From: Acidimicrobiia bacterium
Lineage (GTDB): Bacteria; Actinomycetota; Acidimicrobiia; IMCC26256; JBBRZM01
Direction of reading: 5' to 3'
DNA length: 64,000 nt
Assembly (NCBI GenBank): GCA_038236695.1
Contig: JBBRZM010000001.1
Span: 90,430-154,429 of the forward strand
Part shown: piece by piece, positions 54,612 through 61,673 of the stretch
Layout: every line of letters starts with the position of its first letter
Position numbering within the stretch: the first letter of the stretch is position 1
Made by a program: the position numbers and the translations under genes
The notes under the pieces: generated by a model
Database searches by the model: none
Told to the model about the DNA's origin: nothing
What the model saw: only the letters and a program-made list of their open reading frames with translations

Positions 54612-55594
54612 CGGAACGCTCCTGGGCCTTCTGGTGCACGTTGATACGACGGGTCGGACTGGCGGGCGGCGAGTGTGTCGGCCAGGTTTTGATCGGGCTG
54701 CTCGTGCTTCTCGGCACCCGAGCGCAACGCCTCGGCGCCGCCGACGATCTCCATGATCTCGGTGGTGATGGCGTCTTGCCGCGCGCGGTTCATCACGCGT
54801 GACAGGCTCTTGATCAACTCCTCGGCGTTGTCGGTGGCCGATTTCATCGCCCGCTGGCGCGCCGCGTGCTCCGACGCCGCGGCGTCGAGCATGCAGGCGT
54901 ACAGCTTCGCTTCGACGTACCGCGGCAGGAGCTGCTCCAGGATCGCTTCGGGCGACGGCTCGAAGTCGTAGGCCGCCGACGGGCCGTCATGCTCAGGGCG
55001 CTCGGGCACTTCGACTGGCATGAGCTGGACGTTCGCCACCGCTTGCGAGCCGGCCGAGAGGAACTTTGTGTACACGACGTTGACCTGGTCGAGCTCGCCG
55101 CTCTCGAAGCGTCGCAGCAGGTCGCCCGCGATCTCCCGCGCGTTCTCGTACGTGGGCTGGTCGCTCATGCCGGTGAACTCGGCATCAATCTTGTAGCCGC
55201 GGTAGCGGAAGTAGCTCATCGCCTTCCGGCCCTCGAGCACGAGGCCGTAGTCGCGGCCGTTGTCGATATCGTTTTGCAAGGCACGCTCGGCAGTGCGGAT
55301 CACCGACGAGTTGTACGCGCCCGCCAGGCCGCGGTCGGCGGTCATGACCACATAACCGACGCGCTGGACCTGCTCACGCGGGACGAGCAGCGGACTGTCG
55401 GACCCCGCCCCGCCCGACGCGAGATCCGCGACCACCTTCGTGATCTCCTCGCTGTACGGGCGCGCCGCGTGCAAGCGCGCTTGGGCCTTGACAATGCGGC
55501 TCCCCGCGATGAGCTCCATCGCGCGCGTGATCTTCTTCGTCGACTGGACGCTCTTGATCCGGCGCTTGAGGATCCGCTCCTGGCCGCCGGCCAT
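54608..55594 (-). CDS. atpG: ATP synthase F1 gamma
   Basis: [25 protein letters not shown]. Confidence 0.97.
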
Positions 55595-55815
55595 TACATT
55601 CGCTCGCTCGCTGCGGGGCGGGATACCCGCCCCGCGGGCGCTCGCTCGCTGGCGAGCTCACTGCGCTCGCTCCGCTCGCTTCGTTCGCCGCGTGGCTGCA
55701 AGCGTCGTGGAGTCGCTTGGCTCGCTGCGGGGCGGGATACCCGCCCCGCGGGCGCTCGCTCGCTGGCGAGCTCACTGCGCTCGCTCCGCTCGCTTCGTTC
55801 GCCGCGTGGCTGCAT
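55594..55815 (-). repeat. palindromic intergenic repeat, two tandem copies (114-bp period), carrying a 73-aa mini-ORF
   Basis: 55606-55700 identical to 55720-55814; hairpin GCGGGGCGGG-ATA-CCCGCCCCGC; mini-ORF TAA overlaps atpG ATG. Confidence 0.9.
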
Positions 55816-55826
55816 CAGATCCACAC

Positions 55827-57413
55827 CTACGCCGTTGCCTCGGCCGTTGTCTCGGCTGTGGCTTCGGCTTCGGTGCCGGCGTCGCTTTCGGCTTGGGTCA
55901 TGTCGGCGACGAACTGTTCTTTGAACTCCTGGACCGACGCTGCGAACGCGTCGCCTTCGGGCAGCTCGCCGGAGTCGCGAATCTGTTCGAGCAGGCCCGC
56001 GGAACGGGTGCGGAACCACTCGAGCACGCCGGCCTCGAACGGCTTCACCTGCTTGACGGGCAGGTCGTCGAGCACACCGGTGGTGCCGCAGAAGATCGAC
56101 ACCACCTGCTCGTCGACCGGCATCGGCGAGTTGAGCGGCTGCTTGAGCAGCTCGACGAGCCGCGCGCCTCGGTCGAGCTGCGCTTTCGACACCGCGTCGA
56201 GCTCGGAGCCGAAGGTGGCGAACGCCTCGAGCTCGCGGAACTGCGCGAGGTCGAGCTTGAGCGTGCCCGACACTGCTTTCATCGCCTTGATCTGCGCGGC
56301 ACCACCGACGCGAGACACCGAGATACCGACGTCGACAGCGGGCCGCACGCCTGACTTGAACAGGTCGTCGATGAGATAGATCTGGCCGTCGGTGATCGAG
56401 ATCACGTTGGTTGGGATGTAGGCCGAGACGTCACCGGCTTTCGTCTCGATGATCGGCAACGCGGTGAGCGAACCACCGCCCTTCGCGTCGCTCAGCTTCG
56501 CCGCCCGCTCGAGGAGCCGGCTGTGCAGATAGAAGACGTCACCGGGATATGCCTCGCGACCGGGCGGACGCCGGAGCAACAGCGAGAGCTGGCGGTAGGC
56601 CTCGGCCTGCTTGGAGAGGTCGTCGTAGACGATCAGCGCCGCCTCGCCGTTCTCCATCCAGTGCTGACCCATCGCGCACCCGGCGTAGGGCGCGAGGTAT
56701 TTGAACACCGCTTCGTCGCCTGACGACGCGTTCACCACGACCGTGTAGTCGAACGCGCCGTGCTCCGTGAAGGTGGCAACGGTCTGCGCGACGGTCGCGC
56801 CCTTCTGGCCGATCGCCACGTAGATGCACTTCACGCTCTGGCCGCGCTGGTTGAGGATCGTGTCGACGGCGACCGTCGTCTTGCCGGTCTTGCGGTCGCC
56901 GATGATCAGCTCGCGTTGGCCGCGACCGATGGGCGTCATCGAGTCGATGGCCTTGATGCCCGTCTGCAGCGGCTCGCTCACCGGCTGGCGGGAGACGATG
57001 CCGGGCGCTTGCACCTCGAGGCGGCGCAGTTCGGTGGACGCGATCGGACCCTTGCCGTCGATGGGTTGACCGAGCGCGTTGACGACGCGACCGATGAGCG
57101 CGTCACCGACGGGCACCGAGAGGATGCGGCCGGTCGCCTTGGCGGTGTGGCCCTCCTCGATCTGGTCGGACTGGCCGAGCACCACCGCGCCGATCGACTC
57201 CTCGTCGAGGTTGAGCGCGAGGCCAAGCGCGCCGCCTTCGAACTCGAGCAGCTCGTTGACCGCCGTCTCCGGCAGGCCCGAGACGCGTGCGATCCCGTCG
57301 CCCACCTCGAGGATCCGGCCCACCTGCTCCCGGGCCAGCGTCGGCGTGAAGGTGCCGACGTGCTTGCGCAGCGCCGCCGCGATCTCGTCGGCATTGATGG
57401 TCAGCTCCGCCAT
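55827..57413 (-). CDS. atpA: ATP synthase F1 alpha
   Basis: [27 protein letters not shown]. Confidence 0.98.
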
Positions 57414-57944
57414 CTAGATCTGCTCCTTCAATTGATCGAGGCGATGACGCACCGTGCCGTCGATGACGGTGTCGCCGACACGGGCGACGAGACCGCCGAG
57501 CACGCTGGGATCGACGATCACCTTTACCTCGATGTTCTTGCCCGTGGCGCGGCTGAGTGCGTCGGCGAGGCGCGTGCACTGCTCCTCGTCGAGCGGCACC
57601 GCGCTACGCACTTCGGCAACCTCGTGTTGGCGCTCCGCTGCCGCGAGCTCCACGAACCGGTCGACGATCTCGGCCAGGTCGCTGATCCGACCCGCGCTCA
57701 CGACCAGGTTGACGAGCGCGACGCTCGCAGGCAGCGCCTTGCCGCCCATCAGCTCGTCGACCACCGCGACCCGACGCTCGAGCGGCAGCGCGGGGTCGGT
57801 GAGCGCCATACGCAAATCGTCGGCGCCCTCGTACGTGCGCGCGAAACGGAAGACGTCGTCTTCGATGTCGGCGAGATACCCCTCGGCGCGCGCGACCTCG
57901 AGGAAAGCCCTCGCGTACGCGTCGACTCGAGAAGTGTCGGCCAC
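57414..57944 (-). CDS. atpH: ATP synthase F1 delta
   Basis: YARAF, SAVPL, DPSVLGG..VGDTVIDGT. Confidence 0.95.
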   Translation of the reverse strand: MADTSRVDAYARAFLEVARAEGYLADIEDDVFRFARTYEGADDLRMALTDPALPLERRVAVVDELMGGKALPASVALVNLVVSAGRISDLAEIVDRFVELAAAERQHEVAEVRSAVPLDEEQCTRLADALSRATGKNIEVKVIVDPSVLGGLVARVGDTVIDGTVRHRLDQLKEQI

Positions 57945-60249: not shown

Positions 60250-60267
60250 TTGTGAATGCATTCCCAA
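60250..60267. promoter_or_regulatory. Rex-type operator
   Basis: TTGTGAA-TGCA-TTCCCAA, one mismatch to TTGTGAA-N4-TTCACAA. Confidence 0.7.
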
Positions 60268-60295
60268 TTTAGAGGACGGCGTTTCCGACGGTCAA
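60266..60295 (-). promoter_or_regulatory. atp operon promoter
   Basis: TTGACC (60295-60290), N18, TAAATT (60271-60266). Confidence 0.6.
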
Positions 60296-60324
60296 ACCGA
60301 GGCCGCGGCAGGCGAGATGTCCGT

Positions 60325-61542
60325 TCAGCCCGGCCATCGGTCTGCGGCGCGACGCCGCGCCTCGAAGTCGACGACCGCGTCGCCCGTCGTGGCCGCGGCC
60401 GCGGCGTCGAGCTCCCCGGGTGCTGCCTCCGGGACGGCGAGCGACGGGTGGTTCGAGCGCACGCCGGGGTGGAAGTAGACGTACAGCAGCAGACCCAGCG
60501 CGGCGACGCCGACGGGGACGAGCGCGTTGCCGTGGTTCGTGTACGTAGGTATCAGGACCATCCCCGACAGCAGCGCGGTCCACAGCCAAAGGATTACGAC
60601 GGTGCGCCGGGGCCCATGGCCCAGCCGCATCAATCGGTGATGCAAGTGGTCCTTGTCGGCCACGTGAAATGCCTGGCGCCGCGCGACGCGGCGGAGAAAC
60701 GAGAACGCGGTGTCGACGATCGGCACGCCGAGGATCAGCACGGGGATGAACAGCGGCGCGAAGAAGAAATAGGTCTGGCCGCTGAACTGGTCGGCGGTGC
60801 GGCCGCCGACTGTGATCGTCATCGTGGCCATGAGCAGCCCGAGGAACATCGCTCCCGCGTCGCCCATGAAGATGCGCGCCGGGTTGAAGTTGTGGGGCAG
60901 AAAACCGATGCAGACGCCCACCGCGATGACCGCGACCAGCGGCGCGATGTTGGAGCCCTCGAGCAAGCCGGCTTTGAACAGCCGATCCGAGTAGAGGAAC
61001 AGCGCCGCGCCCGCGATCGCCACGATGCCTGCCGCGAGACCGTCGAGGCCGTCGATGAGATTGAGCGCGTTGGCCATGAGGACAACGGTCACGACCGTGA
61101 CGAGCGGCGCGAGGTCGGCCGACAGCACCACGTAGTCGTAACTGGCGAACGGCACCCGGAAATAGAGCATCGACACGCCGAACAACGACAGGATCCCACC
61201 CGCGAGCACCATGCCGGCGACCTTCGTCGGCGGCGAAACCTCGCGCAGGTCGTCAACTGCGCCGACCACGAAGATCACCGCGGCCGCGAGCATCAACCCG
61301 AGTGGCTCCGATGAGCCGTGGAACATGGCGTGAAACTGCGGGATCTGCGAGGCGACCGCCATCGCCGCGAGGAACGCCGCGAACATCGCCGCGCCGCCCA
61401 GTGACGGTGTCGGCAGCGCGTGCACACTGCGCGGCCCTGGGTGCGACACCGCGCCGATCCGCTTGGCGACGATGCGCACGATGAAGGTCAAGAGAAACGT
61501 CGTGACCGCGGCGACGCCGAGCACGATCCCGTAACCGGCCAT
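60325..61542 (-). CDS. undecaprenyl-phosphate GlcNAc-1-phosphate transferase (WecA/TagO-like)
   Basis: GAVDD, NLIDGLDGL, NFNPARIFMGDAG, DKDHLHHRL. Confidence 0.92.
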   Translation of the reverse strand: MAGYGIVLGVAAVTTFLLTFIVRIVAKRIGAVSHPGPRSVHALPTPSLGGAAMFAAFLAAMAVASQIPQFHAMFHGSSEPLGLMLAAAVIFVVGAVDDLREVSPPTKVAGMVLAGGILSLFGVSMLYFRVPFASYDYVVLSADLAPLVTVVTVVLMANALNLIDGLDGLAAGIVAIAGAALFLYSDRLFKAGLLEGSNIAPLVAVIAVGVCIGFLPHNFNPARIFMGDAGAMFLGLLMATMTITVGGRTADQFSGQTYFFFAPLFIPVLILGVPIVDTAFSFLRRVARRQAFHVADKDHLHHRLMRLGHGPRRTVVILWLWTALLSGMVLIPTYTNHGNALVPVGVAALGLLLYVYFHPGVRSNHPSLAVPEAAPGELDAAAAATTGDAVVDFEARRRAADRWPG

Positions 61543-61673
61543 TACAGGCGCTCGCTCGCTGCGGGGCGGGATACCCACCCCGCGGGCGCTCGCTCACTGG
61601 CGAGCTCGCTCCGCTCGCCGCGTGACTGCAAGCGTCGTGGAGTCGCTTGGCTCGGGAACTTCGGATTTGGCAT
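61542..61673 (-). repeat. third copy of the intergenic repeat, with 43-aa mini-ORF
   Basis: Same element as at 55.6 kb; ATG overlaps glyA TGA (TGATG) and TAA overlaps the wecA-like ATG (TAATG). Confidence 0.9.

Follow-up and report, generated by a model that had tools for sequence, protein, structure and literature searches.

A hairpin repeat with bridging open frames at operon junctions in one order of Acidimicrobiia

How can a repeat enter the junction between two closely spaced operon genes and remain there without uncoupling their translation? The question is raised by a 64,000-nt stretch of an Acidimicrobiia bacterium genome (GenBank assembly GCA_038236695.1, contig JBBRZM010000001.1, positions 90,430 to 154,429 of the forward strand), here called the window, in which units of one hairpin-bearing repeat fill the atpA/atpG spacer and the spacer that separates glyA from a wecA-like gene. 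The genome holding the window, G000, comprises 2.52 Mb in 51 contigs at 68% GC and is 95.8% complete; two further genomes, G001 and G002, belong to the same genus. From the sequence comparisons reported below we judge, with a probability of roughly 0.6, that the element is a non-autonomous repeat that persists in coupled junctions through duplication of junction bases and an open mini open reading frame (mini-ORF), by which translational coupling would be kept.

Bridging frames at gene junctions

All genes at both window loci lie on the minus strand, and the window genes were identified by NCBIfam matches. At the first locus atpA (F1 alpha, 55827-57413; TIGR00962, 784.8 bits) ends with a TAG at 55829-55827, and atpG (F1 gamma, 54608-55594; NF004145, 354.6 bits) starts with the ATG at 55594-55592. 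The 232-nt spacer between them (55595-55826) holds two tandem units, one proximal to atpA (55720-55814) and one proximal to atpG (55606-55700), which are 100% identical and follow each other with a period of 114 nt; a 95-nt repeat at this identity is far beyond chance. The core hairpin of the first unit (55727-55749) has a 10-bp stem and a 3-nt loop with the apex GGGTATCCC on the minus strand, and that of the second unit lies at 55613-55635. A mini-ORF runs through both units (55594-55824) and has 76 codons when read from the GTG at 55824, which is 5 nt beyond the point where the atpA stop begins; from the ATG at 55815 it has 73. Its TAA (55596-55594) overlaps the atpG start codon as TAATG.

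The second locus repeats this layout with a single unit. The longest ORF of glyA (serine hydroxymethyltransferase, 61673-63250; NF000586, 607.8 bits) ends with a TGA at 61675-61673, and since the family match runs from residue 114 onward the true start lies further in than that of the longest ORF. The 130-nt spacer behind glyA (61543-61672) contains a repeat core (61554-61648) that is 82-83% identical to the atp units by BLAST and 18 nt shorter, with a core hairpin at 61561-61583 that includes one G.U pair on the sense strand. Here the mini-ORF has 43 codons (61542-61673); its ATG (61673-61671) overlaps the glyA stop as TGATG, and its TAA (61544-61542) overlaps, again as TAATG, the ATG (61542-61540) of a gene for a WecA/MraY-like glycosyl-phosphate transferase (60325-61542) whose family matches fall below the curated cut-offs.

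An initial annotation, made from the window sequence, had already described much of this arrangement, and its account of the frames is borne out: the quoted minus-strand peptide frame is found at both loci, both TAA codons overlap the next ATG in a shared TGTAATGGCCGG context, the glyA stop and the mini-ORF start overlap, the atp mini-ORF begins just past the atpA stop, and the length differences (the 114-nt period, the 18 nt missing from the third copy) are multiples of three. Its palindromic element is present in the two plus one copies that were claimed, while the palindrome itself is the 23-nt hairpin only and not the whole unit.

Is the frame tied to the neighbouring codons more often than chance would allow? 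Twenty junctions were analysed whose flanking stop and start codons are established by homology or by coordinates, namely ten atpA/atpG junctions, five nusG/rplK junctions and five further junctions of G000. A junction was counted as bridged if one frame has both a start codon at -2 to +12 from the upstream stop and a stop at -12 to +2 from the downstream start. A complete bridging ORF, open throughout, is present at 13 of the 20, against 5.33 frame matches expected under a random offset, and of the 14 junctions that have a start as well as a stop close by, 13 use the matching frame. There is thus an excess of frames linking upstream stop to downstream start, in agreement with the frame-conserved mini-ORF of the initial annotation. 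For four of the 13 bridged junctions (spacers of 124-334 nt) the other two frames are closed, the longest case being a 111-codon frame across a 334-nt spacer. Eight of the ten atpA/atpG junctions are bridged, over spacers of 88, 108, 120, 124, 142, 142, 232 and 334 nt, as are two of the five nusG/rplK junctions.

For a variant of the element that begins with NTGAGCGAGCG, 25 rows were read. Two of them run off their locus, and in 16 of the other 23 a frame of 26-57 codons runs from NTGA to NTGA, the terminal NTGA standing directly behind the 3' box. The other seven comprise one TAG two bases ahead of an ATG, three frames that continue in frame into the downstream ORF and three that do not fit. 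An automated survey of stops near predicted starts was set aside: its start finder often took a GTG in the element's CAGTGAGCG box and inflated the NTGA counts. Stop placement relative to the next start codon is -5, -2 or +1. At nuoK/nuoL in G000, where the overlap is ATGA, the hairpin is read in another frame than in the window copies, which indicates that an open frame is kept and not a peptide.

This last point bears on whether the frames could be ordinary coding sequence, that is, N- or C-terminal extensions of the neighbouring genes or small real proteins sharing a peptide module. Some copies would indeed be translated within proteins if the genes are intact. ORFs were checked wherever the upstream coding frame continues across the element. 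At L016:550-4116, L052:3173-6565, L076:504-1880 and L100:2475-4514 the element lies in frame within long ORFs, which encode two DnaE-type polymerases, one acyl-CoA dehydrogenase and one Y-family polymerase. In the two DnaE-type ORFs the PHP domain match (residues 15-236 and 27-232) spans the insert, which sits at about residues 102-104; in the acyl-CoA dehydrogenase the N-terminal domain is interrupted at about residue 116. The element sequence can hence be carried within an open reading frame, and the intragenic copies read it in at least two different frames. Moreover, in 60 of 71 copies the gene's own frame has no stop from the hairpin to the downstream start, as a coding origin would suggest. 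Against it, stop codons close the frame towards both neighbours at the atpA/atpG and glyA/wecA junctions, the reading frame varies from copy to copy (RVSRP, GYP and GIP readings), the mini-ORF peptides of both window loci match no NCBIfam family, and the G002 proteins lack the segment. We consider a coding origin very improbable.

The repeat family and its hairpin

A search for further copies, as the initial annotation had suggested, was carried out in G000 and its relatives. A profile search with nhmmer found 23 solid copies in G000 (E 1.5e-6 or better) and two weak ones. They share a core in which a GAGCG-rich box leads into a stem of roughly 10 bp capped by the apex GGGTATCCC, and another GAGCG box comes next; variants have additional small hairpins ahead of or behind it. 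A BLAST search with a 127-nt unit gave matches of 75-100% identity in 19 of the 41 relatives, which represent many families of one order. A strict core motif was then applied to 401 genomes of the class, comprising G000, 108 others of the same order and 292 of other orders. It occurs in 27 of the 108 and in none of the 292, and a control with the reversed pattern gave no match in all 401; two of the positive genomes are flagged as unpublished. Copy number by this motif reaches 67 (G023). Within the order the motif is unevenly spread; three families, for instance, have it in 8 of 22, 3 of 21 and 5 of 6 of their genomes. Because the strict motif misses diverged variants, these occurrence figures are lower bounds. 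A looser pattern (ATGAGCG...GGAGCGG...ATGA) gave 0-2 matches per genome in 401 genomes of the phylum, about the level of its reversed control, and is uninformative on relatives outside the order.

Named sequence records, scanned with the strict core pattern, contributed at least 117 stretches. Among the matches listed, on which all counts from named loci below are based, the loci belong mainly to metagenome-assembled genomes (MAGs) labelled Acidimicrobiia, Actinomycetota or uncultured actinomycetes; a few rows are labelled Bifidobacteriaceae, Bifidobacterium breve or Mycobacteriales (L065, a 'Mycobacteriales bacterium' MAG). Overall, the family is a non-autonomous interspersed repeat that is, as far as sampled, confined to one order of Acidimicrobiia.

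Units also multiply in place. Tandem arrays of two units are present at the atp junction in G000 and in G022, and one of seven units in L077. The latter (L077:7343-7745) has a period of 54-55 nt, with the last of its seven cores after 105 nt; the period is not a multiple of three and no stop occurs at the unit joins. In contigs of four public DNA runs, records X1 and X2 span the glyA/wecA copy and none spans the atp array, several joints being cross-assemblies between copies.

Covariation in the hairpin was examined in an alignment of 123 distinct copies. How the copies were gathered had fixed the 3' GCAG and the three innermost pairs beforehand; the seven outer pairs were free to vary. Across the ten stem pairs 90.6% of cells are paired. 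Cells in which both partners have changed number 95, compared with 31.3 +/- 4.3 in shuffled alignments, and none of 500 shuffles reaches 95. Sliding the 3' arm by 1-3 columns lowers pairing to 52% or less. An individual case is provided by the orthologous copies in the glnA leader, where a compensatory change from C-G to A-T separates G000 and G002. The hairpin is kept by compensatory change. Its mismatches are strand-asymmetric, with 78 G.A/A.G cells, which occur in tandem in one subfamily, against 2 T.C/C.T cells, and with 16 G.U against 9 A.C; this asymmetry is consistent with folding of the sense strand, be it RNA or the corresponding DNA strand.

Position, gain and loss of copies

Where do the copies lie relative to genes? 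From 160 nhmmer matches on the named loci, 150 usable copies in other genomes were obtained. A co-oriented coding frame follows on the downstream side of 87 copies and an opposite one in 19, the remaining 44 having no downstream coding frame (34) or standing at a locus end (10); on the upstream side 67 neighbours are co-oriented and 32 opposite. The 23 solid copies of G000, assessed by eye from the ORF table, comprise 17 with a co-oriented downstream ORF, two between opposite-strand ORFs and four without a downstream coding frame, so that orientation is random in neither set. The downstream genes in G000, judged by N-terminal translation with no family search, presumably include prs, nuoI, nuoL, rpsJ, rplK and glnA in addition to atpG and the wecA-like gene. 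The downstream start codon commonly stands 26-33 nt past the apex, or about 54 or 63-65 nt if extra modules follow, and many copies place a good Shine-Dalgarno-like tract (GGAG, AGGAG) 8-9 nt ahead of it.

The family extends beyond operon junctions: 17 of the 150 copies lie in 5' leaders behind a divergent gene, so that the family is not limited to operon interiors, and other copies lie beside tRNA genes or inside genes. Three G000 copies adjoin tRNA genes and not protein starts (L175:1055-1205 and L176:755-1143, on contigs C24 and C5).

Eight G000 sites were compared with the corresponding regions of G002, and of G001 where it was covered. The empty sites that an insertion would leave in relatives are found: at seven of the eight the element is absent from G002, and three of the junctions are tight overlaps (TAATG, TGATG and ATGA). 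The element behaves as inserted DNA. The atpA/atpG junction of G002, taken as the ancestral state, is the bare overlap gcgTAATGgcc with the atpA stop TAA. In G000 233 extra bases lie between GTA and ATG, GTA stands at both ends and the atpA stop is TAG. Relatives join nuoK and nuoL by ATGA, and G000 has a 147-nt insert there with GATGA on both sides. At nuoH/nuoI, where relatives show TGATG, G000 has a 50-nt element flanked on each side by the 18-nt junction sequence, and nuoI has lost three codons (9 nt). Short spacers are found in G002 at tuf/rpsJ (about 32 nt) and nusG/rplK (9-11 nt). The copy in the glnA leader is the only one of the eight common to all three genomes of the genus. Copies thus come and go between close relatives and duplicate in tandem. 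Directly upstream of the atp insertion, AtpA ends in a low-complexity run of Ala, Glu and Thr (window 55830-55900, set against L129), whose length and sequence are not the same in G000 and G002.

At glyA/wecA and glmU/prs, the place of the element is taken in G001 and G002 by another hairpin repeat, behind which a similar box precedes the start codon; the glyA/wecA spacer of both is 68-69 nt long. This second, unrelated hairpin family has the arms TTCGTTCTTGCGTCG and CGACGCAAGAATG and is seen at L158:1415-1510 (glyA/wecA of G001) and in L182 and L181 (glmU/prs of G001 and G002). BLAST returned 44 matches on both strands at about 22 loci in G001, 17 in G002 and two weak ones in G000. The glyA/wecA copy of G001 carries a 27-codon bridging ORF (TGATG...TAGTG), which the G002 copy lacks.

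Recurrent occupation of the same junctions raises a different possibility, namely that the hairpin is the working part, an RNA element exploited by the host as an mRNA stabiliser, processing site or attenuator ahead of ribosome-binding sites, and that the mini-ORF is a harmless by-product. Such an element could tune operon expression, for example by holding gamma below alpha in the atp operon. The covarying stem with its sense-strand asymmetry and the 75-100% conservation of apex and boxes across families would be expected of a functional RNA. The pattern of occupation also favours it: among 30 relatives' loci at atpA/atpG the element or a clear variant is present in nine, two of them with two units, and it is also present in the named locus L012, with two more of the 30 retaining the 3' box only. 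The presence of a different hairpin in G001 and G002 at two G000 element sites suggests that a hairpin is wanted there, and the glnA-leader copy has been kept across the genus. This explanation leaves the excess of frame matches and the single open frame of up to 334 nt unaccounted for, as well as the in-frame intragenic copies, and about 17 of the 30 atpA/atpG junctions have spacers of 19 nt or less without any hairpin. Taken as the whole explanation we regard it as possible, if rather unlikely; it is compatible with persistence through a coupled mini-ORF and may hold in addition. The two loci with the 3' box only, L141 and L156 (atpA/atpG of G016 and G037), have spacers of 31 and 37 nt without a hairpin (…GAGCGAGC…TAGAG/TAAGC ATG) and look like deletion remnants.

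Returning to the reading we prefer, how would a repeat with a mini-ORF keep two genes coupled? A unit is made up of four parts: a GAGCG-rich 5' stretch that often provides a start codon, the 10-bp GC hairpin capped by the conserved apex GGGTATCCC, a further GAGCG-rich box on the 3' side, and a stop codon. The element would land in tightly coupled junctions such as TAATG, TGATG and ATGA and stay there because a few junction bases are duplicated, which would leave intact the stop of the first gene as well as the start of the second. In such tight junctions an insertion would be expected to last only if it repeats the overlapping stop and start bases and keeps its frame open. A ribosome finishing the upstream gene could then re-initiate on the mini-ORF, melt the hairpin, terminate on or beside the next start codon and re-initiate once more, and coupling would be kept. 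Translation of the mini-ORF and translational coupling are what we infer from the frames and codon overlaps. The initial annotation had spoken of a non-autonomous element that targets gene junctions; absence from G002 at seven of eight sites, orientation and the excess of frames agree with such an element, while targeting is inseparable from survival only at junctions.

Several observations weigh against this reading. Seven of the 20 defined junctions are unbridged, namely tuf/rpsJ, nusG/rplK in three of five genomes, glmU/prs, where an ORF begins 55 nt into the spacer behind its own Shine-Dalgarno-like AAGGGA, and two of the ten atp junctions. An automated pass with crude gene calls found only 10 of 36 co-directional cases bridged, 11 of the 36 junctions being miscalled or intragenic. 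Because the copies are related, the statistics overstate their independence. Because of the Shine-Dalgarno-like tract present in many copies, the downstream gene may not need coupling at all. Among the 150 copies in other genomes 19 are antisense to the neighbouring gene, and a few lie near tRNA genes. The duplications are unequal in length (3, 5 and 18 nt), and no mobilising enzyme is found among the three domains searched. Folding energy does not separate the strands (z-scores of -3.4 and -2.3 for the sense and -3.0 and -1.6 for the antisense strand). Finally, public RNA runs were sought for the stretch, and none containing it was listed.

Mobilisation, known repeats and implications

The mobiliser of the RAYT/IS200-like or IS110 type that the initial annotation had suggested looking for was not detected in G000. 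There is no match there to Y1/RAYT (PF01797), for which the control was positive in 6 of 14 known genomes, nor to IS110 (PF01548) or the IS630-type DDE_3 domain (PF13358). As a MAG can lose insertion sequence (IS) copies, these negatives are weak evidence. Rfam gave nothing beyond a chance snoRNA match (E 0.88) for window positions 54000-63000 and only tRNAs for 17 G000 element loci, two of which lie beside tRNA genes. A literature search found no description of such repeats in Acidimicrobiia, in line with the initial annotation, which did not recognise it as a described family.

Repetitive extragenic palindromic (REP) sequences and bacterial interspersed mosaic elements (BIMEs), which are served by RAYT transposases, are GC-rich stem-loops with many extragenic copies and proposed roles in mRNA stability, according to PMC3733652 and PMC12306157. 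The Acidimicrobiia element resembles REP in being a short imperfect palindrome, a 23-nt hairpin with 90.6% pairing, that is repeated in extragenic space. It could accordingly be asked whether it is a DNA element of this kind, acting or moving as single-stranded DNA through a RAYT-type or other host enzyme, with an orientation that follows the replication strand and with frames that arise by chance in GC-rich sequence. A GC-rich palindrome repeated tens of times per genome and up to 67 times by the strict motif, tandem arrays, patchy distribution among families and equally good folding on both strands are all features of such an element. It differs in several respects. G000, which is 95.8% complete, contains no RAYT gene and no match to any of the three domains; the copies show a strong orientation bias towards the downstream gene; the units are longer and modular and carry an ORF; and copies read by eye have no GTAG or CGTC tag adjoining the stem. 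The fixed distance of 26-33 nt to start codons is not given by a replication-strand bias, the excess of frame matches exceeds chance, and the asymmetry of G.A over T.C mismatches fits one strand only. We hold this explanation to be improbable.

The layout of the element is closest to that of mycobacterial interspersed repetitive units (MIRUs). In the passages of PMC12548453 and PMC3184786 that cite Supply et al. 1997, MIRUs are repeats of 40-100 bp in about 40-50 copies, apparently mobile and landing at start codons; their internal ORF is coupled downstream at -4 spacing, and filled sites show tetranucleotide direct repeats. The overlapping start and stop layout that the initial annotation had given for MIRUs agrees with these passages. 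As far as they describe them, both are short interspersed actinobacterial repeats of tens to about 100 nt, found tens of times per genome between co-transcribed genes; both carry an internal ORF that abuts or overlaps the flanking stop and start (here ATGA...ATGA and TGATG...TAATG); and both show filled and empty sites with short direct repeats and tandem units (here GTA, GATGA and 18-nt duplications). The likeness is partial in that most copies are co-oriented with genes, yet not all are intercistronic. Relative to the MIRUs of these passages, the element is found in a different class of Actinomycetota, has a central covarying 10-bp hairpin, varies in stop placement (-5, -2, +1), includes in-frame intragenic copies and leaves unequal duplications; the two were compared by layout. 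The element is a real and apparently undescribed analogue of MIRUs, and we do not count it as a member of the MIRU family given the differing taxon, the covarying hairpin, the variable stops and the intragenic copies.

The intragenic copies recall a further group. Rickettsia palindromic elements are palindromic repeats that can lie in frame inside protein genes without breaking them, and the Acidimicrobiia element similarly lies in frame within the DnaE PHP domain of two genomes and within an acyl-CoA dehydrogenase. It differs in that most of its copies are intergenic and tied to start codons, and taxon and sequence are unrelated. MITEs (miniature inverted-repeat transposable elements) such as the Neisseria Correia elements are non-autonomous, are co-transcribed with their neighbours and form structured RNA. 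Set beside these and the general passages on such elements in PMC3184786, our element is likewise non-autonomous and would be co-transcribed and structured as RNA. Unlike MITEs, it has no terminal inverted repeats at the one insertion examined by eye (nuoK/nuoL), its duplication length is not fixed at a single value, and IS110 or IS630-type domains that could mark a matching autonomous IS are absent from G000.

The recurrent atpA/atpG copies allow a more far-reaching suggestion. At this junction expression must fall from three alpha to one gamma, and ten genomes from several families carry the element there, eight of them with a bridged junction. We offer as a speculation, itself unlikely, that the element is a portable translational-coupling cassette, consisting of a start codon, a hairpin that ribosomes can melt, a Shine-Dalgarno-like tract and a stop codon at the start of the next gene, which hosts have recruited repeatedly to set protein ratios in essential operons. 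Its recurrence at atpA/atpG could then reflect selection for damped re-initiation and not an insertion hot spot, and the invariant GGGUAUCCC apex might be read by an order-specific factor.

To our knowledge, MIRUs are nearly alone as operon-dwelling repeats with a coupled mini-ORF of their own, and are known from one genus. A second family with the same trick in a distant, uncultured actinobacterial order suggests that this could be a general route by which small repeats enter essential operons, kinship to MIRUs being judged by layout only. The family is large and occupies many junction types with spacers of 67-334 nt, so that the frame rule is statistically testable, which it would not be with three copies. 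There are also practical consequences. Gene callers applied to Acidimicrobiia MAGs will be misled into spurious small ORFs, wrong starts and apparent DnaE inserts, and short-read assemblies are broken by the elements. They could serve as strain markers and as natural examples of bicistronic coupling designs.

Elsewhere in the window, at 13410-13494, a 17-nt unit (GCTTGATCCGCATCGCT-like) is repeated about five times head to tail.

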